DNA of 64,000 nt from a bacterium. GTDB taxonomy: Bacteria > Patescibacteriota > CPR2 > UBA1875 > CAIMLA01. Below the pieces are notes generated by a model. That model worked only from the letters and a program-made list of their open reading frames with translations. It ran no database searches and was not told the DNA's origin. Below are positions 2,893 to 54,951 of this stretch, piece by piece. Every line of letters begins with the position of its first letter. The stretch's first letter is position 1. Location of the stretch: the NCBI GenBank assembly GCA_037129835.1, contig JBAXUE010000001.1, forward strand, positions 174,858 through 238,857, read 5' to 3'. A program made the position numbers and the translations under genes.

Positions 2893-3737
2893 TGAGAGAA
2901 AATGAGATATACGATAACGAAGGCCGTATTCTAAAAGCTGGTGGAATTATTATTAATAACAATAATGATATTTTGTTATATTTGAACGAAGATAGAGGAT
3001 TTGCATTCCCTAAAGGCCATTTGGAACAAGGTGAGACTTTCGAAGAGTGCGCGCACAGAGAAGTAAAAGAAGAAACAGGCTTAGATGTAGTGATTGTTGA
3101 TTATTTGTCACCAATTATCTATTTGAACCAGCACGATAACAAAGAAGTCTATATTGAGATGTTTCTAATGAAGCCATTGAATTTGGAACTTTCAACAGAG
3201 CTAAACGACGACACCCTACTGTGGGCAGATTATAATACTGCTGTTGTAAATTTGAAGCCCAATAATAAGCACCAGCATAATAGTCTTTCAGACTATTTGG
3301 TTAAAAATAAAGACAGTATATATAGAGAAAAGGTTCTTTCGGCCAACGGAGAAGTAATGAAGGCGGGAGCTTTGATTTATCGAGATTGTGGAAAAGAATT
3401 TTTACTAACCCATAGAATAAAAAGGGCGGATTATAGTTTCCCGAAGGGACATCTAGAAGCTGGTGAGTCATTTGAAGAAGCTGCAAAAAGAGAGATTATC
3501 GAAGAAACAGGCTGTGCCGTTAAAATTATCAAACCACTCGAAGATTTTAACTATGAATATCCCGAGTCTGGTAAAGTTTGTGTCAGGATGTTTTTAGCAG
3601 AGTGCGTGAGTCAAGGGGATAATCACGAATCATTTGAATCCCCGGTGTGGGTAAAGCGGGAAGAAGTAGAATCTACACTTACTTATGAAAATCTTAAAGA
3701 ATATTTTAAAGAGAATACAAAGGATCTTTTTTTATGA
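2892..3737 (+). CDS. Tandem-domain NUDIX hydrolase
   Basis: Two Nudix boxes: GHLEQGETFEECAHREVKEETGL and GHLEAGESFEEAAKREIIEETG. Confidence 0.75.
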   Translation: MRENEIYDNEGRILKAGGIIINNNNDILLYLNEDRGFAFPKGHLEQGETFEECAHREVKEETGLDVVIVDYLSPIIYLNQHDNKEVYIEMFLMKPLNLELSTELNDDTLLWADYNTAVVNLKPNNKHQHNSLSDYLVKNKDSIYREKVLSANGEVMKAGALIYRDCGKEFLLTHRIKRADYSFPKGHLEAGESFEEAAKREIIEETGCAVKIIKPLEDFNYEYPESGKVCVRMFLAECVSQGDNHESFESPVWVKREEVESTLTYENLKEYFKENTKDLFL

Positions 3738-15835: not shown

Positions 15836-16756
15836 ATGAATATCAAGGAAGCTAGTATTTGGGCTAGAAAAGTCCTGAAAGATAACGAAGTTGACTCGCC
15901 AGAGGCATCTGCGGATTTTTTGCTCAGGCAACTTTTAGCCATTGATAAAGCTCAGATGCTGACTCACCCAGAAGAGAAAATACCCAAGCTACAAGAGCTT
16001 AAGTTTCGCCGCTGGGTAAAGAAAAGATCAAAACACGAACCAGTCTGGTATATTACTGGGAAAATTGAGTTTATGGAGCTAGATCTCGCTGTTAATCAAA
16101 GTGTTCTTATCCCGCGACCTGAAACAGAGTTATTGGTTGAGAAAATACTCGCTCAATACAAAATACAAAATACAAAATACAAAATATTAGATGTCGGTAC
16201 GGGTAGTGGGACTATAATTCTTTCTTTGGCAAAACATCTTCCTTTGTCATCCCTGGTCGCAAACCCAGGGATCTCTAGCGTTCCCTCCGAAGGAGATCCT
16301 CGTGTTCGTAAGGACAACATATGCTTTTTTGCCTCTGATATTTCTTCAACAGCTCTGGATACAGCTAAGAAAAACAAGAAAAATAATAATATTGCTCCAG
16401 AAATCAAGTTTGTGGAAGGGGATTTGTTCGGTCCTTGGGCGGGAGAAAAATTTGATCTTGTCGTTGCAAATCTACCATATGTGCCTCACGAAGACATGGC
16501 TACTCTCGCATTTGATTTAACTCATTATGAGCCAAGAGTCGCCCTGGATGGAGGTATCCTAGGTCTTGAAGTCTATAAAAGATTTATTGAAGAATTGCCA
16601 AATTATTTAAATCCTGGCGCGAAAGTATTTATGGAAATCGGTTATGATCAGGGAAGATATATCGAGGATTTTGTACATAAATATTTGCCGAAAGCAAAAG
16701 TAGAAACACTGGGTGACTACCGCCAAATTGATCGAATAGTTGTCATAGAAACCTAG
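15836..16756 (+). CDS. prmC: Release-factor glutamine methyltransferase PrmC/HemK with an in-frame ~25-aa insertion
   Basis: LDVGTGSGTI SAM motif and the NLPY (NPPY-type) catalytic motif. Extra segment LSSLVANPGISSVPSEGDPRVRKDN lies between the SAM motif and motif II. Confidence 0.85.
   Translation: MNIKEASIWARKVLKDNEVDSPEASADFLLRQLLAIDKAQMLTHPEEKIPKLQELKFRRWVKKRSKHEPVWYITGKIEFMELDLAVNQSVLIPRPETELLVEKILAQYKIQNTKYKILDVGTGSGTIILSLAKHLPLSSLVANPGISSVPSEGDPRVRKDNICFFASDISSTALDTAKKNKKNNNIAPEIKFVEGDLFGPWAGEKFDLVVANLPYVPHEDMATLAFDLTHYEPRVALDGGILGLEVYKRFIEELPNYLNPGAKVFMEIGYDQGRYIEDFVHKYLPKAKVETLGDYRQIDRIVVIET
16156..16183 (+). repeat. Heptanucleotide tandem repeat (ATACAAA)x4 inside the prmC coding sequence
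   Basis: Four perfect 7-nt units, translated as QNTKYKIL. Confidence 0.8.
16242..16318 (+). mobile_element. Internally deleted (~75 bp) copy of the palindromic in-frame insertion element, inside prmC
   Basis: Shares CTTTGTCATCCCTGGT-N5-AACCCAGGGATCTCTAGCG and GATCCTC-N4-TTCGTAAGGA(TG)ACAAC with the mnmA copy, both nearly identical. Lacks the central ~80 bp. Confidence 0.55.
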
Positions 16757-16816: not shown

Positions 16817-16892
16817 CGGGCCCTTAGCTCATCTGGTAGAGCGCGTCCATGGCATGGATGAGGTGGCAGGTTCGAGTCCTGTAGGGTCCACC
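16817..16892 (+). tRNA. tRNA-Ala (anticodon GGC), CCA encoded
   Basis: Cloverleaf folds manually. Acceptor GGGCCCT/AGGGTCC contains the G3:U70 Ala identity pair. Anticodon loop is ATGGCAT. Confidence 0.85.
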
Positions 16893-17058
16893 AGATATTC
16901 AGCAGGCCCTATTTTATTAAGATGGTTTGCACCGAGGAGGTAGCAGGTTCCCAGCCCGACAGAGTCATTCTGGCGGGAAGTCGTGCCCGCCCGCCCGTAG
17001 TATGACGAAGGAGGGTTGGGTCCACCATATTGACCCCATATTACTTGGTTGGAACAAA
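16893..17058 (+). other. GC-rich structured non-coding segment downstream of tRNA-Ala. Candidate ncRNA or tRNA-end remnant plus one copy of the intergenic repeat family
   Basis: Hairpin GGCGGG-N8-CCCGCC. GGGTCCACCA at 17018-17027 duplicates the tRNA-Ala 3' end. Positions 17010-17056 resemble the repeats at 19837 and 25425. The 62-aa ORF at 16927..17115 is unlikely to be coding. Confidence 0.3.
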
Positions 17059-17085
17059 GAGGTAGAAATACCTCTTTTTGTGTTA
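17059..17085 (+). terminator. Rho-independent terminator AGAGGTA-gaaa-TACCTCT + TTTTTGTG
   Basis: Perfect 7-bp stem followed by a T-run. Confidence 0.6.
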
Positions 17086-17095
17086 ATATTATCTT

Positions 17096-17740
17096 ATGAG
17101 GGCGTTATTTTCTGAACCAACCGTTAAATTCTGCGAAGAAGCAACCAGGGGTATAATCAAAAGACCTTATTATGCTTTGTCCAATTTTGCATTCTTCATT
17201 TCCGCAATCGCGATTTTCGTCAAGGGGAAGGGTTCAAAACTTTCAAAAATATTTGGCACCACCGCTTTATTAATCGGGTTCTTTTCTTTGGTGTACGATT
17301 CAACCTATATTTATCTTGCCCAGTTGTTTGATATCAGCGGGATGCTTTTATTTGTTAACGTTTTGTTATACCTAAATCTTAAGAATGTATTCAAAGCAAA
17401 AACCCTACTACTTACCCAGTTGCTTTTATTCGTTTTAAATATGATTTTAATTATCACTTTTCAAGGTCACTCGGGTAATATCATATTTGGATTATACATA
17501 ACTGCAGTAGTTGTTTCCGAGGTTTATTTAATAAATAGTAAGATACACACAAATTTATGGAAATGGTTGGTGCCCTTCGGAATTTTTATTATCAGTTTCC
17601 TGATATGGATTTTGGATGCAAGGAAAATATTTTGTTCACCTGTCGGGTTACTCAATGGTAGGGCAATATTTCATTATCTTAACGCGATTGTAATTTACCA
17701 GTTATACAAATTTTACGATTCACAAAAAGAGTTAACCTAA
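17096..17740 (+). CDS. Hypothetical polytopic membrane protein (about 6-7 TM)
   Basis: Hydrophobic periodicity only. No recognisable motif. Confidence 0.45.
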   Translation: MRALFSEPTVKFCEEATRGIIKRPYYALSNFAFFISAIAIFVKGKGSKLSKIFGTTALLIGFFSLVYDSTYIYLAQLFDISGMLLFVNVLLYLNLKNVFKAKTLLLTQLLLFVLNMILIITFQGHSGNIIFGLYITAVVVSEVYLINSKIHTNLWKWLVPFGIFIISFLIWILDARKIFCSPVGLLNGRAIFHYLNAIVIYQLYKFYDSQKELT

Positions 17741-17765
17741 ACAGATCGTTCCCAGTTCTTGCCAT

Positions 17766-17880
17766 TCCAACAATTCAAGAACCAACTGGTTCCAATGAGA
17801 TAACAGGCAGTCCACCATAAATTTAATGGCTAATTGGAGCCATTAAATTTATATACCCAATTTTCAGTTGGAACCTTTTT
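17766..17880 (+). repeat. Intergenic structured repeat, copy a (nested inverted repeats, GTCCACCATAAATTTAATGGCT core)
   Basis: Shares CAGTCCACCATAAATTTAATGGCTA-N-GAGCCATTA...TTTATATACC-AA-TTT-CAGTTGGAACC with 25425-25530. Outer inverted repeat GTTCCAA/TTGGAAC. Inner palindrome TTTAATGGCT/AGCCATTAAA. Confidence 0.6.
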
Positions 17881-17939: not shown

Positions 17940-18320
17940 ATGAATAAAAATATAATATATGTAATTATTGCTGTCGTGATTGGAGTATTGGCTGTCGGTG
18001 GCTATTTTGTTTTTCGAAATAATGGTAATAATACGAATAACAGCCAAAAGCAAACAACAACTCCAACAGCAGCTGAAACAACTAATTCCGTTAGGATTAA
18101 GGACTTCGCCTTTAGCCCGTCAGAAATAAAAGTAAAAAAAGGTACCACTGTAACTTGGAAAAATGAAGACTCGGCAACGCATAAGATAAAGTCAGACGCC
18201 TTTGAGTCAGGTGATCTTGCAACTGGTGATACATATCAATTTAAATTCGAGAGCACGGGGACATTTAGTTATATCTGTTCCATACACCCCTCGATGAAAG
18301 GAACGGTGACTGTAGAATGA
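17940..18320 (+). CDS. Membrane-anchored type-1 copper (cupredoxin; amicyanin/plastocyanin-like) protein
   Basis: N-terminal TM, Thr-rich linker, and a cupredoxin fold with ligands H (ATHKI) and C-x2-H-x2-M (CSIHPSM), an amicyanin-type spacing. Confidence 0.6.
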   Translation: MNKNIIYVIIAVVIGVLAVGGYFVFRNNGNNTNNSQKQTTTPTAAETTNSVRIKDFAFSPSEIKVKKGTTVTWKNEDSATHKIKSDAFESGDLATGDTYQFKFESTGTFSYICSIHPSMKGTVTVE

Positions 18321-18538
18321 TAAGAGAAATTGCTACATTCCAAATCCTCGGCCTCCCTGTAGTTGTCTATGGGGGATTGGTGACATTAACAGCATTTGCC
18401 TTTACGGCATATATAGGATATACAAACAAAAGCGGCAAGGGGAAAATACCATTCAAGTGGCACTCCAGAATGGTAATAGCCTCTTTTGTCCTTGCACTTA
18501 TTCATGCATTCTTTGCTATTTCATTGTTTGTTGGATAG
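18317..18538 (+). CDS. Small two-TM membrane protein
   Basis: Two hydrophobic helices. Stop/start overlap with the upstream gene. Confidence 0.35.
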   Translation: MIREIATFQILGLPVVVYGGLVTLTAFAFTAYIGYTNKSGKGKIPFKWHSRMVIASFVLALIHAFFAISLFVG

Positions 18539-18551
18539 GAAGTGAGGTTTA

Positions 18552-18834
18552 TGTGACTAGAGTAAAAATAAGTGATTCAAACATAAGGCATTGCCGATGC
18601 CCTGGGTGTCCGGTTCAGGTTGAAAGTGATTGTGCAAATAGGATATTAAAAGAAAAAAAGGTAGATGAGAGTGCCGGTAATATAGGTGAACTTTACTGTG
18701 CTACGGGAAAATCCACTTGTAATGATCTTAATAAAAATGAAACCTGTATTTGTTCATCATGTCTTGTCTGGGATGAAAATAATCTTGGTTCAATGTATTA
18801 CTGTCTCCGTGGTAGTGCGGAAGATAATGGATAG
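18552..18834 (+). CDS. Small cysteine-rich protein (about 94 aa, about 14 Cys), possible metal-binding domain (DUF2769-like?)
   Basis: GTG start after a GGAAGTGAGG RBS. Motifs CRCPGCP, CxNDLNKNETCICSSC and YYC. Family assignment is from memory only. Confidence 0.4.
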
Positions 18835-18845
18835 AGTTTGATCTG

Positions 18846-19796
18846 ATGAATATACCCGATATTATCGAATCTTTTGGTTTCCCGGTTACTTTAGCTTTTT
18901 CAGCAAAAGGTAGAGCATTTTTTAGCGAAAGAATAACTGGTAATATTTGGGAAATAAAGGGAGACAAGATGGATCTTGTTTACAAGTTCCCAATTGTAAA
19001 TATTTCAGGGCATCACGAGACTGGGCTCATAGGAATCGCGGTGGATCCTGATTTTGACATCAGCGGTTATATATATGCTTTCTATACCTATGGTCGAGAT
19101 GAATACTCGATGAAGAATAAAGTGGTTCGATTCTTAGTTGGAAGCGGGAAAGAGGAGACGATTTTAGATAATATTCCTGCTGGCCGAATCCATAATGGCG
19201 GCATCATCGCCTTTGCTCCGGACAAAACCCTATATATCGGCGTTGGTATCGGTAACGAGGTTATGGATAGGTCTCAAGATATCGACTATCTCGGAGGTAA
19301 AGTCTTACGAATAAATAATGATGGCTCGATACCTAAAGATAACCCGTATAAGGAATCTCCGGTTTACTCCTATGGTCATAGGAATATATTTGGCCTCGCG
19401 TTTCATCCTAAAAATGGCAAACTCTTTATAAGCGAGGATGGCCCAGAAAAAAATGACGAAATAAATATTATCCAACCCGATGGAAATTACGGCTGGCCGG
19501 AGGTTACGGGAAAAGTCGGGAGTCCAAAGTTTGTAGACCCCATCATTACCTATACTCCCACTATTACTCCTACCCAATGTTGTTTTGATGAAAAGTATTT
19601 TTACTTTGGGAGCTATAATGATGGGGCAGTACATCGATTAACACTTGGTGGAAAGGATTATAATAAGGTCGAAAAGGATGAGACTGTATATCGTGGGAAA
19701 TCATTCGGGGTAATCGGGGTTTTCCATAGCCCAGATCACCAGTTTTATGTTACAACACCGAATAGAATCTCAAATTTTTCTCCAGAGGTAAGCTGA
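18846..19796 (+). CDS. Soluble quinoprotein glucose/sorbosone dehydrogenase-like beta-propeller (GSDH family)
   Basis: HNGGIIAFAPDKTLYIGVG, GGKVLRINNDGSIPKDNPY, YSYGHRNIFGLAFHP and GNYGWP, as in PQQ-dependent sugar dehydrogenases. Confidence 0.7.
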   Translation: MNIPDIIESFGFPVTLAFSAKGRAFFSERITGNIWEIKGDKMDLVYKFPIVNISGHHETGLIGIAVDPDFDISGYIYAFYTYGRDEYSMKNKVVRFLVGSGKEETILDNIPAGRIHNGGIIAFAPDKTLYIGVGIGNEVMDRSQDIDYLGGKVLRINNDGSIPKDNPYKESPVYSYGHRNIFGLAFHPKNGKLFISEDGPEKNDEINIIQPDGNYGWPEVTGKVGSPKFVDPIITYTPTITPTQCCFDEKYFYFGSYNDGAVHRLTLGGKDYNKVEKDETVYRGKSFGVIGVFHSPDHQFYVTTPNRISNFSPEVS

Positions 19797-19836
19797 TAAC
19801 TATATCTTTGAGTTCTTCCAAGCCATCAGTTCTTTA

Positions 19837-19930
19837 ACCAATAAGTTCCAACTATTTTCGAAGTAGTCCACCATTTTGACCACATCGAAAATACTTGGAA
19901 CCAAGGGGAGACACGAAAGTGTCTCTTTTG
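19837..19930 (+). repeat. Intergenic structured repeat, copy b, ending in the terminator hairpin GGAGACAC-gaaa-GTGTCTC + TTTTG
   Basis: ACCAATAAGTTCCAACTATTTTCGAAGTAGTCCACCAT shared with copies c and d. Internal inverted repeat GTTCCAACTATTTTCGA / TCGAAAATACTTGGAAC. Terminator at 19907-19930. Confidence 0.6.
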
Positions 19931-19982
19931 TATTCTAAAAGGTGTTTTTATGGGTTATTATATACTCAGGTATAGGGGGAAC

Positions 19983-22823
19983 ATGAAAATAGCTAAATTT
20001 AAACTTGCTTACCTTGGCCTTTCGGTGCTTTTGCTTATCTCAGCAACTTTTGTTGGTTTCAAATTTCTTTATAATAATTCTGCAGGTCAGCTAGCCAAGG
20101 GCTCATTTTATATTAGCCAATTTATTGACTCGAACTGGAAGGAAATCTACGACGAGTCCTTTGGGGTCGAATATCAAACTAAAACTTTTACTATTGCACC
20201 ACGTGACGGCAAGGTTCAGATACAGATAAATCAAAAGAATATTCCTTATTCGGATGTTGAATTTGTCCATTTGAATGCTTGCGGGGTGAATATTACTCCT
20301 GAATACGCAAAGTATGCGGTTACCGGTGAGAGCGTCCTAGCGGATATATCGGCCGATGATAATAACGTAATCGTCGCCCACGAGAAGCCAGTTGAAATAC
20401 TTTGGAACATGCCAATTGGTTGTACAGGCACAGCCACCATGACGATGAAGGCGAACGAGTACAGCTCAGCTGAAGCAGGAGCAATTCGCTTTCCATACTC
20501 TGGTGCTCCTAATCAGACTTATCAATTTATAAACAACGGAACCATCACCATAGACGGTAACATCAAGGAAGTTGACGGCATCGCCACTCCAAACTATTCA
20601 CCTACTTGGCTATCTGGCACTGGCCATCCTGGAGGTAGTACATATATCTATATGCAAGATGATGCAAAATACGTCTATCTTTCATATGACATCACCGGTG
20701 ATAATACCAATGAGCACGGACCTGACTGGCTCAAGATCATGGCGCTAAATACTAAAGACGGTAAAGAAAAAGAATATAAGATAAATGATGATCCAGGCCA
20801 ATACGGTCAATGTGGTTTTGGTCTGACTGGTAAAGTTTCATACAAACACCAGACATGTGAGGCAAAGATACCAAAGGCAGATCTGGTTGGTAGTCATCTC
20901 TCATTCTACTCGCTGTATTATGGAACTTTTTCAGGACCTCAGTTTAATAATTATCCTAGCGTTATAACAAGCCCATCAAATACACTGCCGGTTGTGAAGG
21001 GAATGGTATCTGACAATAGCGAAACTCCGGGAAACATCGGGGCTGTAAAATTCCGTGTCAGAGATAGAAATTCTTACTCGACCAGAGAAGAAGACAGTGG
21101 GGCATATGATGGTGTTTGCACTGCAGATGATGGAGTATTCTCTGGGTCTGAAGAGAATTTCACCTGTACTGCCACCGAAGCACTCTCTTATGGCATTAAC
21201 TATGCCTTTGATCTGGAGCTAACTCTGGAGGGCAGTAGTGTCCCGAATGCATACGGAGAGGCCGATTTTACACTCTACGATAATGATTATTCAATCGTTC
21301 ATGATTATAGCGACACCCTGGGTAGTTATCCAATTGGTCAATTTGTAAAGAATGGCAACAAGCTATACGGTGCTACAACTAGTGGTGGTGAACATGGCTA
21401 TGGCAATATATATTCGATGAACATAGACGGTACAAACATGACCAGTATTCACTCCTTTGATGGACAAGGTGATGTAGCTGGCGGTTACACAGTCAGTAAT
21501 TCCTTGGTTTTATCGGGTTCATATCTGTATGGTATGGTCCAAGGTGGAGGCGATGTCGATCAGGGCGGTGTATTCAGACTGAATGTAAACGGAAGCGACT
21601 ATTCAATGATTCACTCATTCAGCGGGTCCACCGACGGATACACCCCCTATGGTTCACTGACTGTATTAGGGAGTCGTCTGTATGGTATGAATGTCAATGG
21701 GGGAATAAATAGTCGGGGAACTATTTTTGGACTGGATATGGACGGGACCAACTTCTCGGTTATTCATAGTTTTGCAGGTCCTGAAGGTGGTAATCCTTTT
21801 AGCACCTTGATTGAGTCGGGTGGCGTTCTGTATGGTATGACAAACTCCGGTGGACTTCAGGATAATTTTGGTGTAATCTTTTCTATCTTGCCATCCGGTG
21901 CCGACTATCATATTTTACATTCATTTTCTGCATCTGATGGCTTTCAGCCGAGTGGGTCATTAACGCTCATTGGGGAAACACTGTTTGGGGCGACTCAGAG
22001 TAGCGGAGCAGAAAGTGGCAATGGGATTATCTTTAAAATCCAGAAGTCTGGGGCCGACTATTCTATCATTCATAATTTTGGCGATGATTTAAACGATGGG
22101 GACCTACCAACATATTCGTCGCTTCAGCTTTGGGGTGACAAACTATATGGAGTCACTGACATCGGGGGAGATAATAACATGGGGACAATATTCTCTATAA
22201 ATACGGATGGTACTGGCTACTCGCTGTTACATGAATTCGCTGGAGGCCCCTATGATGGTCAAACGGGTAGATTCTCGGTGCTCATTTCTAATGGCGTGCT
22301 TTACGGTACGACTTTTTATGGTGGCACATCAAGTCAGGGTGCCATGTTCAAAATGACACTTCCTGGGGCTGTCAGTAACCCAGGCAGTAGCGGTCCAGTA
22401 TTCACGAATCTACCCAGCGCTACCACGGTTATCAATATTACAGATGGTCAGACCATCACTACAAATCCCTATACTTTAAAAGTGAAGCCAACAGATGCCG
22501 ATGGTATTCAAAAGGTTGAGTTTTATATCGATAATATCCTTATCTGTACTGATACTACCGCCGATGTTGATGGCGTATATTCATGTGATTGGGATACTAG
22601 TAAATATCACTCAGATGTTAAAGTCTTGGCTTATGATACGAATGGCAATGTATCCACTGCACTAACTCGTTCGGCTACTGTGAGGCTGGCCAGTACGACT
22701 ACAGGAACATTGCCAGAGACAGGTGGTAAGAATAATCTAGGAAACATCTTATGGCTCATCGGTTTACTCGGCGTAGCGTTCGTAGGTGCTCGTTCAACAC
22801 TAAAGGATAAGGGAGGGGAATAA
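19983..22823 (+). CDS. Large sortase-anchored surface protein: signal peptide, N-terminal domain, about 8 tandem ~40-aa beta-propeller-like repeats, Ig-like domain, LPETG sorting signal
   Basis: Repeats of the form G-x-LYG-x-T-x-GG-x4-G-x-[IV]F-x-[IL]-x3-G-x3-S-[IV]-[IL]HSF (GloVer-like). C-terminal LPETGG followed by a hydrophobic segment and a basic tail (ARSTLKDKGGE). ATG at 19983 preceded by an AGGGGGAAC RBS. Confidence 0.75.
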   Translation: MKIAKFKLAYLGLSVLLLISATFVGFKFLYNNSAGQLAKGSFYISQFIDSNWKEIYDESFGVEYQTKTFTIAPRDGKVQIQINQKNIPYSDVEFVHLNACGVNITPEYAKYAVTGESVLADISADDNNVIVAHEKPVEILWNMPIGCTGTATMTMKANEYSSAEAGAIRFPYSGAPNQTYQFINNGTITIDGNIKEVDGIATPNYSPTWLSGTGHPGGSTYIYMQDDAKYVYLSYDITGDNTNEHGPDWLKIMALNTKDGKEKEYKINDDPGQYGQCGFGLTGKVSYKHQTCEAKIPKADLVGSHLSFYSLYYGTFSGPQFNNYPSVITSPSNTLPVVKGMVSDNSETPGNIGAVKFRVRDRNSYSTREEDSGAYDGVCTADDGVFSGSEENFTCTATEALSYGINYAFDLELTLEGSSVPNAYGEADFTLYDNDYSIVHDYSDTLGSYPIGQFVKNGNKLYGATTSGGEHGYGNIYSMNIDGTNMTSIHSFDGQGDVAGGYTVSNSLVLSGSYLYGMVQGGGDVDQGGVFRLNVNGSDYSMIHSFSGSTDGYTPYGSLTVLGSRLYGMNVNGGINSRGTIFGLDMDGTNFSVIHSFAGPEGGNPFSTLIESGGVLYGMTNSGGLQDNFGVIFSILPSGADYHILHSFSASDGFQPSGSLTLIGETLFGATQSSGAESGNGIIFKIQKSGADYSIIHNFGDDLNDGDLPTYSSLQLWGDKLYGVTDIGGDNNMGTIFSINTDGTGYSLLHEFAGGPYDGQTGRFSVLISNGVLYGTTFYGGTSSQGAMFKMTLPGAVSNPGSSGPVFTNLPSATTVINITDGQTITTNPYTLKVKPTDADGIQKVEFYIDNILICTDTTADVDGVYSCDWDTSKYHSDVKVLAYDTNGNVSTALTRSATVRLASTTTGTLPETGGKNNLGNILWLIGLLGVAFVGARSTLKDKGGE

Positions 22824-22828: not shown

Positions 22829-24829
22829 ATGAATTTTAATTTAAAAAAGACATTCAGCAATATTTTAGTTTTTGTTTTTATGTTTAATTTTTTAATGCCA
22901 GTAGCCCAGGCTGCAGCGCCAGTACAAAGTGTTTTTTTATACGAGCCTGGGGTTAGTCCAACCAATATTCAAATAGACTTTTATCCAAACGAATGGAGCG
23001 ATGTAATAGATTATTGGACGGTTGAATACAAAAAAAGTACCGATACTACCTGGACATCTATGCTATCCGCAAATAACGGGGGCAGCAATTGGGCGCGCAT
23101 TACCGGCTTGTTGCCGGGAACTTCATATGATATTAGGGTTTATGCGACAAACAGTGATGGACAGGGTCCATATAGTGATATTACTACAGTTTCTACCCCG
23201 TCATATGGGCCTGCTGCAGTAGATTTTTTTGGCAGTGGAAGAAACGACTATGGTGAGGATTGGACCGAGTCTAATAGCGACAATACAAATACGTCTTTTA
23301 GTAATCCTAGCGGTGTCGCCATAGACAAGAATCATCATAGGTTATTTGTTGCTGATGGTGGTGGCGATGGTGATCGTAATCATAGAATTATGGTCTTTAA
23401 TCTGGATAGTAATAATGAACCCCTGGACCACATAGCAGATGCGGCAATTTACTCTGTGGATATAGATGGTGATGAGTCGCTTTTGAGAGCGCCAAGAAAT
23501 GTCTTGTACGATAATGACAGTGACACCTTATTTATAGCTGATAGTGATAACGGTAGGATTGTGGTTGTAGATGGCTCCGAGGATCTTATTGTCGAGGGTA
23601 CAGAAGACGACCCTTGGGCTATCCCAGTGGCACAGAACATCTTGGGAGCTGGCGATTTTGATTACCCTCTTGGTATGACCCTAGACAGTGTAAATGGCAG
23701 ATTGTTTGTTGCAGAGAAAGATAAAACAAAAGGTAGTGTTTACGGCAGTGTAAACGTATTTGACGTAAGACCTGCAGGAAGTACTGCAAAAACGATGTGT
23801 GGTGTAACTACAACGGGCATCGAAGATACGACTCCTTCATGCAGCTTGTGGGCAAGTGATGCACTTAGACCTAGAGATGTTGCCTTTGATAGCGTAGGTC
23901 AAGTTCTTTATGCTGCGTATGCAGACCAAAATAGGGTTTTGTCCTTTGATGCTAGAGCTGAGGAAAGTGAAAATAAAACAATGTGTGGAGTGACTACGAC
24001 TGGACTACCCACTAGCGATACAACTGCCATGACCCCATCTTGTGTTTTGGGTCAAACAAATATGGATGATACCGATGGCGATACCACTCAAAGTGGACTA
24101 GATGTTCCCAGAGGTTTGTGGTTTGATCAAGATAACGACCGCCTGTTTGTAGCTGATTTGGGTAATAACCGCGTTCTACAGTTTAATGGTCTGTCATCTA
24201 TGACTAATGGCATGGATGCGACTGCTGTTTTTGGACAAGGGGCCTTTACACAAGACAATAGTCAAACAACTCAATATGAGCTCGATAGTCCAAATGCAGT
24301 TACTATAGACCCTATCACCAAGCGTTTATATGTTAGCGATAACCAAAACAATCGTATAATGGTCTTTGCCTTAGAGGATCCACCAGAGCCACCAGCAACC
24401 CCACCAACTTTCGTCGATTTACCTGGTACAAGCTCTGCTATTAACGTCACCGAAGGCCAAACGATTACAACCAACCCATACACCATAAAGGTAAAACCAA
24501 CAGATACTGACGGTATCAAGAAAGTCGAGTTCTATATCGATAATATTCTTATTTGTACCGATACAACAGCAGATAGTGACGGTGTCTACTCCTGTGATTG
24601 GGATACCTCGAAATACCACTCTGATATCAAAGTGCTGGCCTATGACACAAATGACAATGTATCAACAGCCCTAACTCGCTCTGCTACTGTGAGACTAGCT
24701 AGTACTACTACAGGAAAGCTTCCAGAAACTGGCGGTAATAATAATCTAGGAAACATCTTATGGCTCATCGGTTTACTCGGCGTAGCTTACGCAAGCAGAC
24801 GCCTGATGCTCAAAAAAATAAATATTTAA
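22829..24829 (+). CDS. Sortase-anchored surface protein: signal peptide, fibronectin-III-like domain, about 6 NHL-type beta-propeller repeats, Ig-like domain, LPETG sorting signal
   Basis: Signal peptide MNFNLKKTFSNILVFVFMFNFLMPVAQA. NHL-like repeats (SNPSGVAIDKNHHRLFVADGG...NHRIMVF, NNRVLQF, NNRIMVF). C-terminal 130 aa are about 90% identical to the C-terminus of the upstream gene, including LPETGG. Confidence 0.75.
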   Translation: MNFNLKKTFSNILVFVFMFNFLMPVAQAAAPVQSVFLYEPGVSPTNIQIDFYPNEWSDVIDYWTVEYKKSTDTTWTSMLSANNGGSNWARITGLLPGTSYDIRVYATNSDGQGPYSDITTVSTPSYGPAAVDFFGSGRNDYGEDWTESNSDNTNTSFSNPSGVAIDKNHHRLFVADGGGDGDRNHRIMVFNLDSNNEPLDHIADAAIYSVDIDGDESLLRAPRNVLYDNDSDTLFIADSDNGRIVVVDGSEDLIVEGTEDDPWAIPVAQNILGAGDFDYPLGMTLDSVNGRLFVAEKDKTKGSVYGSVNVFDVRPAGSTAKTMCGVTTTGIEDTTPSCSLWASDALRPRDVAFDSVGQVLYAAYADQNRVLSFDARAEESENKTMCGVTTTGLPTSDTTAMTPSCVLGQTNMDDTDGDTTQSGLDVPRGLWFDQDNDRLFVADLGNNRVLQFNGLSSMTNGMDATAVFGQGAFTQDNSQTTQYELDSPNAVTIDPITKRLYVSDNQNNRIMVFALEDPPEPPATPPTFVDLPGTSSAINVTEGQTITTNPYTIKVKPTDTDGIKKVEFYIDNILICTDTTADSDGVYSCDWDTSKYHSDIKVLAYDTNDNVSTALTRSATVRLASTTTGKLPETGGNNNLGNILWLIGLLGVAYASRRLMLKKINI

Positions 24830-25380
24830 GACTTATCCTTGCTGGGGTTGGGGTTGCTTCGCTTCTTGCTTTTGGTATTTTCTTTCCATGGAAACCATTT
24901 GCCGATAACTTGTTCAACAAGAATGGACTAAACATCACCATGTCTAAAGAAGAAGAGGGATCCTTTCAAGATTTTGGTATAGAGATACCGAAGCTTGATG
25001 TAAAAGCGCCGGTTATGGCCAACGTAAATGGTGATAATAAGTCAGAATACAACAAGTCACTGACGAAGGGACTCGCTCACTACAAGGGGACCTCTCTACC
25101 TGGCGAAAAGAGCAATATCTTTGTTTTTGGTCACTCAAGTAGCGACACAGACGGTGGACGTTACGCTAAAATATTTAGAAAACTAGACGATCTAAAAAGT
25201 GGCGATAAGATAACTGTGTATTATAAGAGCAAGAAACATGAGTACACAGTAACCGATAAGAAAGTTGTCGAGGCCGACGACCTTTCACCTCTCAACCTGA
25301 CTGATGGTGAACAGCTAACTTTGATGACCTGCTGGCCGATAGGAACCGTAGAAAAGAGATTGATAGTTATCGCGAAATAG
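24760..25380 (+). CDS. Sortase (transpeptidase), N-terminal TM anchor
   Basis: Catalytic His in IFVFGHSS, TLxTC motif LTLMTCWP, and a downstream Arg. The ATG at 24760 has an AGGAAA RBS and overlaps the last 70 nt of the upstream LPETG gene in another frame. Confidence 0.8.
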   Translation: MAHRFTRRSLRKQTPDAQKNKYLRLILAGVGVASLLAFGIFFPWKPFADNLFNKNGLNITMSKEEEGSFQDFGIEIPKLDVKAPVMANVNGDNKSEYNKSLTKGLAHYKGTSLPGEKSNIFVFGHSSSDTDGGRYAKIFRKLDDLKSGDKITVYYKSKKHEYTVTDKKVVEADDLSPLNLTDGEQLTLMTCWPIGTVEKRLIVIAK

Positions 25381-25424
25381 CATCTATTCTAGACTGATTC
25401 AGCACTTTCCAGGCGAGTAATTCC

Positions 25425-25530
25425 TTTACCAACAAGTTCCAACTATTTTCGACGCAGTCCACCATAAATTTAATGGCTATTTAGAGCCATTATTTTTATA
25501 TACCAAATTTACAGTTGGAACCTTTGAGCG
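25425..25530 (+). repeat. Intergenic structured repeat, copy c
   Basis: Near-identical to copy a over CAGTCCACCATAAATTTAATGGCTA and TATATACCAAATTTACAGTTGGAACCTTT. Confidence 0.6.
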
Positions 25531-26891
25531 TGAGATGGTATTATTTCGGTATGGAGCAACTAGGTCAAAATCAATCAATCGAAACTGATGACGTTAAACC
25601 GCCAGAAGTCTTTGAGGCTAAAGCAGATGCTGATCCTGCCTTGGCGGCATATTCTTCTCAACCTGAGAATAATCCACTCTCGCAAGCTTTTATGGAAAAA
25701 TATGGGGTTGAATATTCCGACCCTCAAGCCTTAGCTGAAAATCCAGACAAACCTTCACCGGAAATTTCTATGGTGATCCCGGTTCACAATGAGGGTGAAA
25801 GTATTGTTGGGTTGCTCGAGTCCCTAGCGTCACAGGTAAGCGATAAAAGCGCCGAAATTGTATTAGTAATAAATAATGACACAGTCGGGACTAGAGACAT
25901 TATTGATAAGGCAATCGCGGAAGGTAAAATTGACGGTTCTAAATTGCGCCTAGTCGATTGTAGCTACGAAACAAAAGAAGATGGTGATGCTAAGATGGGC
26001 GGGGTTGGGTTAGCCAGGAAAATTGGTATGGACTATGCCGTAAGCTCTGGCTCTGAAACGATAGTCTCCTTAGACGCAGACTGGAAGGTCGAAGACGGCT
26101 TTATTGACCAGGTTGACCAAACAATGTCGCCAGATATCGATGGATTCACCTTTCAAACTGAAGGAATTGCTAACGATGATAGTTCACGTGAATATATGAG
26201 GGTGATGGGTCAGGTCCAGCGCTACAGAGAAGCACTAGGTATTTCTGCAATAAAAAAAGAGGTTGATTTAGAATCGCCGCTAGACAAGAATACAGGTGCA
26301 GTCCATGTGGTCAGAGCTTCTAGCTATGCCAAGGCTGGTGGCATGGTCCCTGTCGTCACAGGTGAGGACGGTAGGTTTGGTGCAAGGGTTTCTGAGAGTG
26401 GCGCTCGACTAAAGAAATCAGAAATTACAGTTGGCGTTGAAATTAGGGAGAGTGACACGCCGGGTGGTCAAGGGGAAAGCCTAAAGAAATTCAACGAAGG
26501 CCTTGTTACAAACCCAGATAAGCCGGGCGAATATATCACGATTGATGAGGCTCAAGAAAAGATGGATAACAGCAAAGAATTTCAGGCAGAACAGAAAAGA
26601 CAAGAAAAAATTGATGAGATCTCAAAAGAACTTATCCAAGAACTTACTAGTTTTTATAACAATAACAAAGAAAAATTACAGACATTAGAAATTGAAGACA
26701 TTGATTCAATTAAAGAAGAGGCAAATACCAGTCCGCTAATAAGCAAGTATCTACTATCTTCAGAGAACGATTTTAGCCAACTGATTGGGATACTTAAGGA
26801 CAGCACTACAGTAGATCAATTCATTTCGGGATTAAGAGATAAGCTGGGCGACGCTGTTAAGGGAAGGGTAGAGGAGTCCGTAGCTTCGTAA
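25515..26891 (+). CDS. Family-2 glycosyltransferase with long C-terminal charged/coiled-coil tail
   Basis: ISMVIPVHNEGESI and a DxD (LDAD) arrangement. C-terminal 130 aa are Lys/Glu-rich. Confidence 0.6.
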   Translation: MEPLSVRWYYFGMEQLGQNQSIETDDVKPPEVFEAKADADPALAAYSSQPENNPLSQAFMEKYGVEYSDPQALAENPDKPSPEISMVIPVHNEGESIVGLLESLASQVSDKSAEIVLVINNDTVGTRDIIDKAIAEGKIDGSKLRLVDCSYETKEDGDAKMGGVGLARKIGMDYAVSSGSETIVSLDADWKVEDGFIDQVDQTMSPDIDGFTFQTEGIANDDSSREYMRVMGQVQRYREALGISAIKKEVDLESPLDKNTGAVHVVRASSYAKAGGMVPVVTGEDGRFGARVSESGARLKKSEITVGVEIRESDTPGGQGESLKKFNEGLVTNPDKPGEYITIDEAQEKMDNSKEFQAEQKRQEKIDEISKELIQELTSFYNNNKEKLQTLEIEDIDSIKEEANTSPLISKYLLSSENDFSQLIGILKDSTTVDQFISGLRDKLGDAVKGRVEESVAS

Positions 26892-26916
26892 ATCTTCTTC
26901 CATTCTTTTAACTCTC

Positions 26917-27015
26917 CCACCAATAAGTTCCAACTATTTTCGACGCAGTCCACCATATATTTAATTGCCGATTCGGGTCATTATTTTTTTGTACTTATTT
27001 TTCGCTGGAATGAAA
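26917..27015 (+). repeat. Intergenic structured repeat, copy d (3' half degenerate)
   Basis: ACCAATAAGTTCCAACTATTTTCGACGCAGTCCACCATATATTTAAT is shared with copies b and c. The right arm has diverged. Confidence 0.5.
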
Positions 27016-27083
27016 GAGGGCGTTTGATTTCTGCTTTTCGATATTATTGAGTTATAATTAAACAAATAATTATTAGGGGGGAT

Positions 27084-27788
27084 ATGTTTTTATATAAAAT
27101 AAACAATCTGACAAAAACTTACGGCGAAAAAGAGGCCAAAGTAGTTGCGCTAAATGACATCAATCTTGAGATTCCTTCAGGGAAATTTATAGTTATTCTG
27201 GGAGCGAGTGGCTCAGGTAAAAGTACGCTGCTAAATATTATGGGAGGTATGGACAAGCCGACTTCGGGCGAAGTCTTTTTTAATGATCAAAGTATTTCAA
27301 AATATAATAAAGGGGAACTAACAAAATATCGGAAAAGTAATATTGGTTTTGTTTTTCAATCATATAATCTACTGCCAGATCTAACAGCTCTTGAGAATGT
27401 AGAATTTTCAACAGAAATAGCCAAACTACCGAGGATAAAAGCAGAAGAAGCCTTGGGTCTAGTAGGGCTAGATAAGAGACAAAGACATTATCCAAGTGAA
27501 ATGTCGGGTGGCGAGCAACAGCGTGTATCTATAGCAAGGACGCTGGCCAAGAATCCGAAGGTTTTACTTTGCGATGAACCAACAGGAGCCCTTGACTATA
27601 AAACGGGCATCAAGGTCCTTGAACTACTCCACAACGTACACGAAGACGGACTTACCTCGGTGATAGTGATTACTCACAACCAAGATATTGCCAAGATTGC
27701 TGATATGGTAATAAAGATGCGCAGCGGTGAGATAATTGATATAAATGAAAACAAAAAGCCGCTCAAGCCTTCGGAAGTGAAGTGGTAA
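27084..27788 (+). CDS. ABC transporter ATP-binding protein (MacB/LolD/FtsE-like)
   Basis: Walker A GASGSGKST, signature LSGGEQQRV, Walker B LLLCDEPTGALD. Confidence 0.9.
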   Translation: MFLYKINNLTKTYGEKEAKVVALNDINLEIPSGKFIVILGASGSGKSTLLNIMGGMDKPTSGEVFFNDQSISKYNKGELTKYRKSNIGFVFQSYNLLPDLTALENVEFSTEIAKLPRIKAEEALGLVGLDKRQRHYPSEMSGGEQQRVSIARTLAKNPKVLLCDEPTGALDYKTGIKVLELLHNVHEDGLTSVIVITHNQDIAKIADMVIKMRSGEIIDINENKKPLKPSEVKW

Positions 27789-27789
27789 G

Positions 27790-30108
27790 GTGAAAACCGG
27801 CAACAAAATAATCGTTCGACGTAATTTTGAACAACTTGGCGCCTTTATTTCAACACTTTTAATAATTGCGGTCGCCGTTGGGTTTTTTGTTATTATTAAA
27901 TCAGTGGTCGCTTCTTACCAAAATAGAGGAGAAGAGTATTTTCAGACAAATGCCTTGGCCGAATATTCTTTTTTTGGTGAAGGCTTTAATGAATCGGATG
28001 TTTCGGAAATAAATAATGTCGCAGGGGTCAAAGATGTTTTTGCCCGCAATGTTTTTGATGTCAAAAATGAAGACAAAACCTTTCGTGTTATATCGGCTCC
28101 ACAGAGTCCTCAAATAAACATTCCATATATTTATGAAGGCGAGATGCCGAAAGGGTCAGCTCAGTGCTTACTCGCCAAAAAATACGCTGATGCCAACGGT
28201 TTACATCTTGGTGATTATCTCGATATCACTATAGCTGGTCAGGTATACAAACTAAAGATTACTGGCCTAATGGCTTCCCCAGAATATGTTTATTTGTCAA
28301 AAAATGTTGCAGTCCCATTTGCTAACCCTAAAGAATTTGGGATTGTTATGGTTGATAATGATTTTTTTCAAATTATCGGTAATCCATACTATAACGAAAT
28401 ACTTTTGTCTTTTAACGCCGACGCAAATCAGTCAAAAACTGTCGAAAGTGTAAAAAAAGCGATTGATAGCAGTAAAATTGTTTCTGAAACTGAGAAAAAG
28501 GATCAGTTGAGCTATAGTTTTTTTAAGGCAGATTTGAAGCAAATCAACCTTTTTGCCTATATCTTTCCTCTTGTATTTTTATTTATTACGGGAGTAATTA
28601 TACTGGTAATCCAAAAAAGAAATGTTATTCACGATCGACGACAAATCGGTGTTATGAAGGCGATGGGGCTGTATGATCGAGAAATTATTTGGATTTATGT
28701 CAAAAGTGCCTTACTACTATCGACTTTGGGAATATTTATAGGAATCATTCTGTCGATACTTATCGGTCAGTTTATCGTAAGTATGTTTGGTTCTATGTAT
28801 GAATTGCCGAATTATATTTATCAAAATGATTTTATTACATGGATTGTTCCTGCGTTAGCAGTTTTGGTCATTAGTACGATAGCCAGTTTTTGGGCCGTAA
28901 TATCGGTCACCAAGATTGTTCCAGCTGAAGCTATGCATGCAGAAACTCCGAAACAAGGTAAGGATATCTGGCTTCAAAGATGGAGATTTTGGGACCATTT
29001 GTCATTTAATAGTCGATATGCCATCAAGTCGGCAGTCAGAAATCGCGGAAGATTTTGGGCGGTAGTTATCGGGATGATTGCCACAATTTCATTGTTATCA
29101 TTTTCCTTTGGTTTTAAGGATTCGCTCCAAGAAACAGTAACTAATGGTTTTGAGAATACTGCCAAATATGACCTCTCAGTTTATCTAAGTGAAGTCCCTT
29201 TTGAGACGGATCAATCGTTTCTAGGAGATAAAGGTGTAATTGATTATCAAAAAACAAATCTTATAAAGACTACCATCAAGAACGGATCCAAAAGTAAAGA
29301 TGTTACGCTTGAGATTTCTAATGATATTTTCTCGATGCATAATATCAAGAATCTAGAGGGAAACAGACCCGATATCGCTAATGGCATAGCTTTGCCAAGA
29401 TACATCGCGAAATTAATGGACGTAAAGAAGGGCGATATAGTAAGTATTTCAACTTCTGATAAGCAGATTGATACAGAGGTAACTGTTTCTGACATTACCG
29501 ATCAAACCGCCAATTTTTATGCCCTAGCTACTTATGATTTTGCTCAAGAATATCTAAAATTAGATAATAAAAGTTATAATACAATCTTTATAAAAAGCAA
29601 CAATCCGAGTGCGTTGCGAGATAAAATTACCGAGAGCAATACCTCAATGTGGGTTACTTTGAGATTAGAAGACGCAAAGAGCTTGAAGAATATGATGATG
29701 ATATTTGATCCATTTATATATTCACTGATTTTCTTTGCGATGGTTTTGGGGGTGGCAGTCTTGTTTGCTATTATGACTATCAATATTGCCTCGAGAGAAT
29801 ATGAATTTGTACTCCTGAGGGTAATGGGTTATTCGCCACTACAAATAATTGTCGCGTATATCAAAGAGCTTCTGATACAGATAATTATTGCACTACCTCT
29901 TGGTATTGTACTTGGGAATCTAATGCTCATGGGTATAGGCGACGCGTTTTCTACCGATGCCTTTGAAATGATTGGTCGGATTTATCCCACAAGCTATCTA
30001 TACTCGTTTTTGCTTTTAATTTCTGTGATGGTAATTGTAACTTTCTTTGCCTTCAGGAAAATCAACAAGCTTGATCTTGTAGCTGGCCTTAAAGAGCGAG
30101 AAGAGTAG
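27790..30108 (+). CDS. ABC transporter permease, double FtsX-domain (MacB-type) with large extracytoplasmic domains
   Basis: Two blocks of four TM helices with FtsX-like C-terminal hairpins. Stop/start overlap with the ATPase. Confidence 0.8.
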   Translation: MKTGNKIIVRRNFEQLGAFISTLLIIAVAVGFFVIIKSVVASYQNRGEEYFQTNALAEYSFFGEGFNESDVSEINNVAGVKDVFARNVFDVKNEDKTFRVISAPQSPQINIPYIYEGEMPKGSAQCLLAKKYADANGLHLGDYLDITIAGQVYKLKITGLMASPEYVYLSKNVAVPFANPKEFGIVMVDNDFFQIIGNPYYNEILLSFNADANQSKTVESVKKAIDSSKIVSETEKKDQLSYSFFKADLKQINLFAYIFPLVFLFITGVIILVIQKRNVIHDRRQIGVMKAMGLYDREIIWIYVKSALLLSTLGIFIGIILSILIGQFIVSMFGSMYELPNYIYQNDFITWIVPALAVLVISTIASFWAVISVTKIVPAEAMHAETPKQGKDIWLQRWRFWDHLSFNSRYAIKSAVRNRGRFWAVVIGMIATISLLSFSFGFKDSLQETVTNGFENTAKYDLSVYLSEVPFETDQSFLGDKGVIDYQKTNLIKTTIKNGSKSKDVTLEISNDIFSMHNIKNLEGNRPDIANGIALPRYIAKLMDVKKGDIVSISTSDKQIDTEVTVSDITDQTANFYALATYDFAQEYLKLDNKSYNTIFIKSNNPSALRDKITESNTSMWVTLRLEDAKSLKNMMMIFDPFIYSLIFFAMVLGVAVLFAIMTINIASREYEFVLLRVMGYSPLQIIVAYIKELLIQIIIALPLGIVLGNLMLMGIGDAFSTDAFEMIGRIYPTSYLYSFLLLISVMVIVTFFAFRKINKLDLVAGLKEREE

Positions 30109-54556: not shown

Positions 54557-54643
54557 GCGGACGTGGCGGAATTGGTATACGCGCTAGCATGAGGGGCTAG
54601 TGATCGCAAGGTCTTGGAGGTTCAAGTCCTCTCGTCCGCACCA
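54557..54643 (+). tRNA. tRNA-Leu (anticodon GAG), long variable arm, CCA encoded
   Basis: Manual cloverleaf: acceptor GCGGACG/CGTCCGC, anticodon loop ATGAGGG, T arm GAGGTTCAAGTCCTC. Confidence 0.8.
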
Positions 54644-54644
54644 A

Positions 54645-54721
54645 GGGCGCCTAGCTCAGTTGGTTAGAGCATCTCGTTTACACCGAGAGGGTCAGAGGTT
54701 CGAATCCTCTGGCGCCCACCA
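54645..54721 (+). tRNA. tRNA-Val (anticodon TAC)
   Basis: Acceptor GGGCGCC/GGCGCCC, D arm GCTCAGTTGGTTAGAGC, anticodon loop TTTACAC, T loop TTCGAAT. Confidence 0.85.
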
Positions 54722-54829
54722 TTCGACTCGCTAACTCGCTCATGGCTTACAGCCATAGAGTTTGAGGGGAGAATGTCCTGAGTGAGGTTGTAAAACCGAA
54801 TCGAATGGACAAAAGTAAATATTATTTGT

Positions 54830-54905
<76 letters not shown>

Positions 54906-54951
54906 CTTAAATAAGAGAATAATTTTCATCGTTGGTTTGAAAGTTTTACGA

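Follow-up and report, generated by a model that had tools for sequence, protein, structure and literature searches.

Intergenic repeats beside tRNA-Ala as probable junctions of recombinase-less gene cassettes with a conserved antisense micro-ORF

Related systems and layout of the locus

Integrons hold promoter-proximal, co-oriented cassettes that contain no mobility genes, with imperfectly palindromic attC sites of about 60–140 nt and a recombinase that is encoded elsewhere. In archaeal integrases of the SSV type, attP is located inside the int ORF, and integration sets part of this ORF against the tRNA-derived repeat. For tRNA-targeting integrases, the shared tRNA-derived sequence is usually 20–50 nt long. 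The ssrA-GIs of Dehalococcoides are islands arranged in tandem behind an RNA gene whose end resembles that of tRNA-Ala, each bounded by a 20-nt direct repeat of the 3′ end of the gene; some ssrA islands are without the integration module, and for these mobilisation in cis or in trans was proposed; ORFs overlap the att site on the complementary strand (PMC3146451). The tycheposons of Prochlorococcus insert at tRNA genes, including tRNA-Ala(GGC), with partial tRNAs at both flanks, and carry their own tyrosine or serine recombinase together with replication modules; in tycheposon islands, new insertions push older elements inward, and degenerate remnants and partial tRNAs accumulate (bioRxiv 10.1101/2020.12.28.424599).

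Here we analysed a family of intergenic repeats in a 64-kb stretch of bacterial DNA (the window; coordinates are positions within it). The five repeats are best explained as the junctions of small, recombinase-less gene cassettes inserted serially at the 3′ end of tRNA-Ala, a reading to which we assign a probability of roughly 0.7. Similar to the ssrA-GIs, the array is tandem, anchored at an RNA gene, marked by direct repeats of the 3′ end, and lacking an integration module, as do some of the Dehalococcoides islands; it differs in that the repeat is 8–13 nt rather than 20 nt, the cassettes are much smaller (0.7–5.6 kb), no cassette contains an integrase module, and the distal arm encodes a 22-residue micro-ORF. 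Insertion at tRNA genes, apparently successive insertions, and partial or degenerate tRNA remnants are shared with the tycheposons, whereas the elements here have no recombinase or replication modules and instead show a stereotyped arm of terminator- and promoter-like signals and an arm with the micro-ORF. The co-oriented cassettes, the palindromic junctions, and the absence of mobility genes resemble integrons, but the crossover would lie at a central tRNA-derived core rather than at the GTT of R′, the anchor is a tRNA gene rather than attI/intI, and the cassettes bring promoter-like and terminator signals. As in SSV-type integrases, a tRNA-matching att core is located within a protein-coding frame; unlike in these, the ORF has 24–46 codons and no recombinase domain, and it starts at the core rather than running through it. 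The structure of the array is of a known kind (tandem tRNA/tmRNA islands), and the micro-ORF is the unusual part.

The array begins after the intact tRNA-Ala(GGC) and a decayed tRNA-Ala(UGC)-like sequence and has five cores within 10 kb. Its features are as follows.

16818-16893, plus strand: intact tRNA-Ala(GGC), with the 3′ end GTAGGGTCCACCA containing the 8-nt core (Rfam 55 bits, ARAGORN, and sequence)
16909-17027, plus strand: decayed tRNA-Ala(UGC)-like sequence with a GC-rich insert of ~65 nt; its 3′ end is core copy e
17020-17028, plus strand: core e, GTCCACCAT
17029-17083, plus strand: right arm of e (tRNA-trailer type), with 90% identity to that of locus L006; GTTGGAAC at 17048-17055, with TTGGAAC 21 nt past the core; terminator hairpin with a T-run at 17056-17077
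17096-17740, plus strand: cassette 1, ceramidase-family membrane protein (Pfam PF05875)
17732-17818, minus strand: left arm of junction a, equal to micro-ORF a (28 aa, MVDCLLSHWNQLVLELLEWQELGTICLG); GGTTCCAA at 17788-17795, 14 nt ahead of the core
17810-17818, plus strand: core a, GTCCACCAT, inside the repeat that was originally observed
17819-17875, plus strand: right arm of a, with a 13-6-13 palindrome (terminator-type hairpin) at 17819-17850, then ATATACCCAA, then GTTGGAACC at 17867-17875
17940-19796, plus strand: cassette 2, cupredoxin, small membrane ORF, DUF2769 protein, and glucose/sorbosone dehydrogenase (Pfam)
19800-19874, minus strand: left arm of junction b, equal to micro-ORF b (24 aa, MVDYFENSWNLLVKELMAWKNSKI)
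19866-19874, plus strand: core b (match to GTCCACCAT)
19875-19931, plus strand: right arm of b, tRNA-Ala trailer type, with TTTGACCACATCGAAAATAC, then TTGGAACC at 19895-19902, and a terminator hairpin at ~19905-19929 by folding; 90% identical to the sequence directly 3′ of the intact tRNA-Ala(UGC) in locus L015
19950-25380, plus strand: cassette 3, two LPXTG-type surface proteins and a sortase (Pfam Big_7, fn3, NHL, Sortase), with LPETGG motifs in the translations
25367-25465, minus strand: left arm of junction c, equal to micro-ORF c (32 aa, MVDCVENSWNLLVKELLAWKVLNQSRIDAISR), whose tail overlaps the sortase stop codon
25457-25465, plus strand: core c (match to GTCCACCAT)
25466-25544, plus strand: right arm of c, with a terminator-like hairpin at 25471-25492, then TTTTTATATA; GTTGGAACC at 25514-25522 and a promoter-like TTGGAA-N18-TATTAT at 25515-25544
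25515-26891, plus strand: cassette 4, family-2 glycosyltransferase (Pfam)
26816-26956, minus strand: left arm of junction d, equal to micro-ORF d (46 aa as read), its conserved part at 26891-26956, MVDCVENSWNLLVGELKEWKKIY
26948-26956, plus strand: core d (match to GTCCACCAT)
26957-27016, plus strand: right arm of d, a decayed hairpin-type arm (36 bits to the right-arm profile), with a mismatched hairpin and GCTGGAAT in place of GTTGGAAC
27084-30108: ABC exporter genes, after the right arm of d

Cores, arms and insertion at the tRNA-Ala end

Each of the five copies reported in the earlier note was found where it had been placed and contains GTCCACCAT. This sequence occurs at 17020, 17810, 19866, 25457, and 26948, five times on the plus strand of the window and never on the minus strand, compared with 0.22 occurrences expected from shuffles (none of 100 shuffles reached five), and it is restricted to 17.0–27.0 kb. 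A repeat search returned a 126-nt family at 17753, 25400, and 26891 and a 62-nt family that adds 19813, and profile searches with the left or the right arm revealed no extra copy in the other 54 kb of the window. The core comprises 8–9 bp, GTCCACCA(T), and its octamer is identical to the last 8 nt of tRNA-Ala(GGC) at 16818-16893, in agreement with the note. Copy e matches 12 of the last 13 nt of tRNA-Ala, so that the tRNA-derived identity is short (8–13 nt across the cores), and all cores are oriented as tRNA-Ala. The sequence at 16909-17027 was not called a tRNA by ARAGORN or Rfam; it contains TTTGCACCGAGGAGGTAGCAGGTTC, which corresponds to the stretch from anticodon to T-arm in the genuine tRNA-Ala(UGC) of locus L014, and GTTGGGTCCACCA, which equals 12 of 13 nt of the tRNA end. 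Since its 3′ end is core copy e, this decayed tRNA-Ala(UGC)-like sequence is taken as the proximal anchor of the array. The Rfam gathering search of the whole window and the Rfam E-value searches of 16.9–27.2 kb and 16.89–17.10 kb returned tRNAs and chance matches only. The family is indeed linked to the tRNA-Ala 3′ end, and this link proves to be the key to it, in the form of a putative crossover core at an insertion site; the SINE-like retroelement origin that had been suggested from it is not upheld.

Comparison of the junctions revealed a common three-part layout, in which a left arm of ~65 nt ends the upstream block, the core follows, and a right arm starts the next block. The right arms are of two kinds, one consisting of a terminator hairpin and a promoter-like TTGGAA, and the other (type b/e) of a tRNA-Ala trailer with its own terminator. 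In the nine hairpin-type right arms (a, c, and d, two of L010, three of L012, and that of L018), the core is followed by an A/T-rich stretch, the hairpin, TTTTTATAC, ACCCAA, and GTTGGAACCTTTG, in this order. The hairpin stems vary by copy (GGCT/AGCC, CCCT/AGGG, and GGCTT/AAGCC) with the pairing maintained: across the nine junctions, 96% of cells are paired, four of the six pairs are changed on both sides, and the covariation score was reached by no shuffle. The hairpin with its T-run reads as an intrinsic terminator of the upstream cassette. In most copies, a TAnnAT hexamer is located 18 nt past TTGGAA and is directed into the next gene, and TTGGAA-N18-TAnnAT therefore looks like the promoter of the following cassette. 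The hairpins of a, b, and c fold better than shuffles (z from −3.6 to −5.8); copy d has no stable fold and represents a decayed version of the a/c type.

Several structural features that the earlier note ascribed to the whole family belong to part of it. The consensus AAGTTCCAACTATTTTCGA(C/A)G(C/T)AGTCCACCAT describes b, c, and d well, but neither a (~65% identity) nor e (17010-17056), which has only the core and the right side in common with the other copies. The outer inverted repeat, GTTCCAA/TTGGAAC, is present in a, b, and c, is reduced to one half in e, and has decayed in d. The 13-6-13 inner palindrome is found in a and c, and d has a decayed form of it; copy b has one long 17-bp hairpin instead, with a terminator after it. 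Compensatory changes, which would mark the stems as RNA structures, are confined to the terminator-type hairpin of the right arm, the outer stem being invariant.

The spacing of the conserved motifs is regular. GTTCSAR is located 14 nt ahead of the core in 16 cassette arms, compared with 9 nt in three genuine tRNAs, and TTSGAAC is located 21–22 or 49–51 nt past the core. The inverted GTTCSAA/TTSGAAC pair, which forms the “outer stem”, may represent a pair of recombinase-binding sites that mimic the tRNA T-loop. The left arm was also considered as a tRNA or tRNA-like structure and rejected: arms a–d match only 8 nt, within the range of the shuffled controls, and the distance from T-loop to core is 14 nt, not 9. 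By eye, a sigma-54 promoter in TGGAAC-N3-TTGGT has the wrong spacing, and the 13-6-13 palindrome is no Xer/dif site, as its arms are unlike dif and the hairpin covaries as a terminator.

Analysis of the arms across loci indicated that left and right arms assort independently and that homology stops at the core, as seen in the following identities.

Junction c versus L006 (the orthologous sortase locus of a relative): left arm 95%, right arm 37%
Junction e versus L006: left arm 3%, right arm 90%
Junction b versus the tRNA site of L015: left arm 34%, right arm 90%
Junction c versus L012:2221: left arm 45%, right arm 92%

In L015, the intact tRNA-Ala(UGC), ending in CAGGTCCACCA, is directly followed by a b-type arm that begins TTTTGACCAC and also reads TTTTGACCACATCGAAAAGACTTGGAACC, then a terminator. 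L014, a metagenome contig from another sample, has the same genes, tRNA, and arm, with ~1.17 kb located between the tRNA and the arm. This insert is bounded by exact direct repeats of GTCCACCA (8 bp), carries an HNH-type ORF, and reads GGTTCGAG-N14-GTCCACCA at its distal end. Judged by their sequences, these two contigs of relatives of the window's genome, L015 and L014, are an empty and an occupied state of one site at which insertion takes place in the last 8 nt of tRNA-Ala.

Similar arrangements were found at other loci. L012 has four cores on one strand within 3.8 kb, of which the last is located at a tRNA-like end; in L010, three cores fall within 1.6 kb; L008 has two copies around a three-gene block, and L003 has a 180-nt repeat that flanks one gene and terminates exactly at GTGGAC. 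The arrays at these loci are always co-oriented, and the micro-ORF is always antisense to the flanking genes; the arrays or sites of L014, L015, and L012 are tRNA-anchored, as in the window. DNA pattern scans of genome and metagenome collections yielded L002, L003, L005/8/9, and L006 as real loci and L001 and L007 as chance matches, and the pattern scan of the viral collection yielded chance matches only. A HEPN-like assignment of the truncated 119-aa ORF beside L003 copy 1 found no Pfam support and was dropped. The cargo in other genomes includes a P-type ATPase, inositol-phosphate enzymes, thymidylate synthase, an OLD-type nuclease, HU, and an HNH nuclease. The association with downstream envelope or surface genes holds within the window and not for the family at other loci; because the cargo there is not envelope-related, a surface-protein regulon is ruled out, and a riboregulator of such a regulon, as proposed in the note, is also not supported, given the lack of an Rfam match and the invariant outer stem.

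A micro-ORF on the minus strand of the left arm

The minus strand of the left arm encodes a micro-ORF with the 22-residue consensus MVDxxxNSWNxLVxELxxWxxL. In the window copies it starts with ATG-GTG-GAC, and TGGTGGAC is the complement of the core. A set of 17 copies from 12 loci was compared. The frame is open in all 17 copies for at least 21 codons, and the other five frames each have stops in 11–16 of the 17. For codons 11–22, pS is 0.89 and pN is 0.39 (pN/pS of 0.44), with synonymous sites saturated. In a comparison of b, c, and d, this frame has 13 synonymous and 14 non-synonymous codon differences, against 2:22 and 4:21 in the other two frames, and the Leu at one position is encoded by TTA, CTG, and TTG in different copies. 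The micro-ORF is under coding-type constraint and has the sequence properties of a protein-coding gene. This conserved coding frame on the reverse complement was absent from the earlier note.

A profile of the four window peptides, searched exhaustively with an HMM against 1.84 billion proteins, recovered eight independent short members with HMMER E-values of 2e-5 to 4e-4 and the core [LM]VDxxxN[SH]WNx[LIV][LIV]xELxxW[QRE]xL, and the family is present in several uncultivated lineages. The peptide has no match in Pfam, NCBIfam, or PHROGs, and none by tblastn against phage and plasmid collections. A word-indexed protein search gave no match with the first peptide alignment and, with a wider one, returned only already-known members and one weak one. 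AlphaFold predicted a single helix for micro-ORF c (pLDDT of 84.5); the conserved hydrophobic residues follow a heptad pattern, and the peptide is amphipathic and acidic. A double-glycine leader peptide was rejected as there is no GG, and the N-terminal stub of an integrase or another long protein was rejected as no long protein carrying the motif came up in the exhaustive HMM search. As regards a type I toxin, the antisense overlap of the micro-ORF with the 3′ end of the convergent gene is present, and the peptide contains no membrane-spanning hydrophobic stretch. The micro-ORFs have neither a Shine-Dalgarno sequence nor a convincing promoter, while the neighbouring genes have clear Shine-Dalgarno sites, so the coding signature might be inherited from functional master copies elsewhere.

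The peptide overlaps the DNA site closely. In copies that retain the core, Val is always GTG and Asp always GAC, and the preceding codon is NTG except in L003b (CAA) and L019a (AGG), where the site consists of GTGGAC without the full octamer. Asn10 is always AAC with a T before it, which yields an invariant TTGGAAC exactly 14 nt from the core, and the other codons vary freely. In L013 and L017, the core is lost (GTAGAC) and the peptide is retained; conversely, e, L010:379, L012:3692, and L014:6437 are core sites without the ORF. The frozen core codons, the kept peptide, and the ORF-less cores together place the left arm under two overlapping constraints, one acting on a DNA site and one on a peptide.

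Explanations for the array

We propose to explain the three-part anatomy, the homology break at the core, the one empty and occupied site in relatives, and the coding-type constraint on the micro-ORF by cassettes that integrated successively at the 3′ end of tRNA-Ala through site-specific recombination. The first part of each junction would be the distal arm of the upstream cassette, with GTTCCAA 14 nt ahead of the core and the micro-ORF on the opposite strand, whose NTG-GTG-GAC start would be the reverse complement of the crossover core. The second part would be the crossover core itself, GTCCACCA(T), corresponding to the acceptor 3′ strand plus ACCA of tRNA-Ala. The third part would be the proximal arm of the next cassette, which takes one of two forms: a terminator hairpin followed by TTGGAACC, readable as the −35 element of a promoter directed outward, or the trailer native to tRNA-Ala, in which TTGGAACC lies 21 nt past the core and a terminator is present. 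The “inner palindrome” of the hairpin-type arm would act as an intrinsic terminator that insulates adjacent cassettes.

Pfam scans of the larger ORFs, both within the array and to either side across the 64-kb window, revealed neither an integrase nor another recombinase nor a transposase, and the related loci contain no recombinase or transposase apart from one integrase fragment in L020. With no recombinase in the window, the cassettes would be non-autonomous and CIME-like; they would either rely on a recombinase from another part of the genome or beyond, acting in trans, or persist as fixed relics. The micro-protein, a predicted single amphipathic helix with a heptad pattern, may have a role in the element, such as that of an accessory or directionality factor. 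Besides the absent recombinase, two features of the array run against the cassette reading. The shared tRNA-derived core is only 8–13 nt long, much shorter than is usual for tRNA-targeting integrases, and the native-trailer arm of junction b is located in the middle of the array, where simple serial insertion predicts it at the far end.

A further-reaching version of the cassette reading is rather unlikely. It describes an integron-like tRNA-Ala cassette system of small-genome uncultivated bacteria, in which cassettes with promoters and terminators but no mobility genes would be shuffled by a recombinase that is supplied in trans and reads the T-loop-like GTTCSAA, and the 22-residue coiled-coil micro-protein encoded at each cassette end would take part in the control of recombination. 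The start codon of the micro-protein would then be built from the tRNA CCA end, and its expression would be set by which arm is joined across the crossover site.

It is unlikely that the cassettes are target-specific transposons, in which a DDE-type or other transposase targets and duplicates the octamer GTCCACCA and the GTTCSAA/TTSGAAC motifs are subterminal transposase-binding repeats. The exact 8-bp direct repeat around the L014 insert and the inverted TTSGAAC-type motifs near both cassette ends, at fixed distances from the core, would fit such elements, but no transposase is present, the very ends have no terminal inverted repeats, and adjacent cassettes have a single core in common. In addition, the distal arm mimics the 3′ portion of a tRNA (GGTTCGAG-N14-GTCCACCA in L014), the hallmark of an attP/attB-type site.

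That the micro-ORF is the functional unit and the rest hitch-hikes with it seems improbable. The arms would in that case be antisense small genes, encoding for example a type-I-toxin-like or PSM-like amphipathic peptide, each with the 3′ UTR of the convergent gene as its antisense regulator, which would agree with the strong coding signature, the predicted amphipathic helix, and the constant convergence with the 3′ end of the upstream gene, often with overlap. However, the hydrophobicity of the peptide is too low for a membrane toxin, the V, D, and N codons are frozen (GTG GAC ... AAC) in core-retaining copies, which points to a DNA site, and arrays contain ORF-less core sites (again e, L010:379, L012:3692, and L014:6437); the tRNA anchoring and the empty/occupied pair would also be left unexplained.

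An integron-like array (CALIN) is very improbable. The ~100-nt junctions would be attC sites with the R″/R′ boxes TTCCAAC/GTTGGAA, recombining as folded single strands. The layout alternates gene and repeat, all genes point the same way, the sites form imperfect palindromes 70–125 nt in length, and TTCCAAC and GTTGGAA agree with RYYYAAC and GTTRRRY at 6 of 7 positions each; nevertheless, homology stops at the central GTCCACCA rather than at G|TT of R′, a tRNA gene serves as the anchor, and no IntI is present in the window. Furthermore, single cassettes contain as many as three genes (cassette 3; in cassette 2, four ORFs are read) along with their own terminator and promoter-like sites, and one arm is protein-coding. 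An ordinary, degenerating intergenic repeat of the MITE or REP kind, or a shared structured RNA that controls envelope genes, can practically be set aside, since the intergenic position of all copies and the significantly better folding of hairpins a, b, and c than of shuffles are outweighed by the absent Rfam match, the outer stem without covariation, the functionally unrelated cargo of other loci, and the lack of copies elsewhere in the 64 kb; the MITE origin suggested in the note fails in particular because the two halves are inherited independently and all copies lie in a single 10-kb array next to a tRNA gene.

On the reading as recombinase-less cassettes, an accessory patch of surface proteins, a sortase, a glycosyltransferase, and redox proteins would have been assembled from modules of 1–5 kb without mobility genes, in a host with a small genome that, judging by its gene content, is probably a member of the CPR (Patescibacteria). 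The signature GTTCCAA-N14-GTCCACCA on the tRNA-Ala strand would allow metagenomes to be searched for such arrays. The distal arm would be dual-coded, holding a DNA recombination site and a conserved micro-protein of an unannotated family within the same 30 nt, and the micro-protein is a candidate for a new accessory factor of site-specific recombination.

Sequences at core sites and micro-ORFs in related loci

Three loci related to the array, from other genomes or metagenome contigs, carry the following features (own coordinates):
L003, 3007-3090: the heptamer CTTGACA (reverse complement TGTCAAG), present seven times and directly adjoining a core site
L003, 4848-5207, minus strand: ORF of 119 aa with the C-terminal end ...KPPKWWT*
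L014, 6445-7605: 1.17-kb insert at the tRNA-Ala end
L019, 250-480: tandem pair of copies of the micro-ORF, the conserved 22-residue frame that starts at the core

The CTTGACA copies of L003 occur in alternating CTTGACATAT and CTTGACAAAC units with a spacing of ~12 nt, and the series looks like iterons or stacked -35 boxes. In the same locus, the neighbouring micro-ORF takes both its ATG and its core from the final codons of the 119-aa ORF. The 119-aa ORF, which gave no match to Pfam, appears to be a gene cut short at the site of insertion. The L014 insert contains an ORF for an HNH-type nuclease (...CPNCHRQLDR...) and carries (G)TTCGAACC / GGTTCGAG motifs close to each of its own ends; the nuclease may be either cargo or a component of the mobility mechanism. 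The two micro-ORFs of L019, separated by only ~136 nt, represent an "empty" cassette, and their neighbours are the gene for tRNA-Ile(GAT) and a block that includes an FtsK/SpoIIIE gene.

tRNA-like array ends and a tRNA cluster

Window 16909-17031: decayed tRNA-Ala(UGC)-like sequence, directly downstream of the intact tRNA-Ala(GGC)
L012 (a further related locus), 3692-3771: similar tRNA-like end closing the array
Window 54557-55199: six clustered tRNA genes (Leu, Val, Phe, Gly, Cys, Leu)

The T-loop region of the decayed window sequence is replaced by a GC-rich insert of ~65 nt; the L012 end carries a shorter hairpin insert. No core repeats are associated with the six-tRNA cluster.

Other repeat pairs in the window

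Window 22408-22707 and 24417-24716: 300-nt repeat pair, 75% identical
Window 4134-4182 and 16242-16290: 49-nt repeat pair, 88% identical

The 300-nt repeat, located in cassette 3, corresponds to the C-terminal Big_7 and LPETGG anchor region common to two adjacent surface proteins, and is a paralogous duplication. The 49-nt repeat, with the palindrome CCCTGG-N7-CCCAGGG in its interior, lies within two unrelated housekeeping ORFs, MnmA-like and PrmC-like, in identical codon phase, with both copies reading LSSLV(V/A)NPGISS(G/V)PS. This repeat appears to be a short palindromic element that entered both ORFs in frame, in the manner of the Rickettsia palindromic elements.
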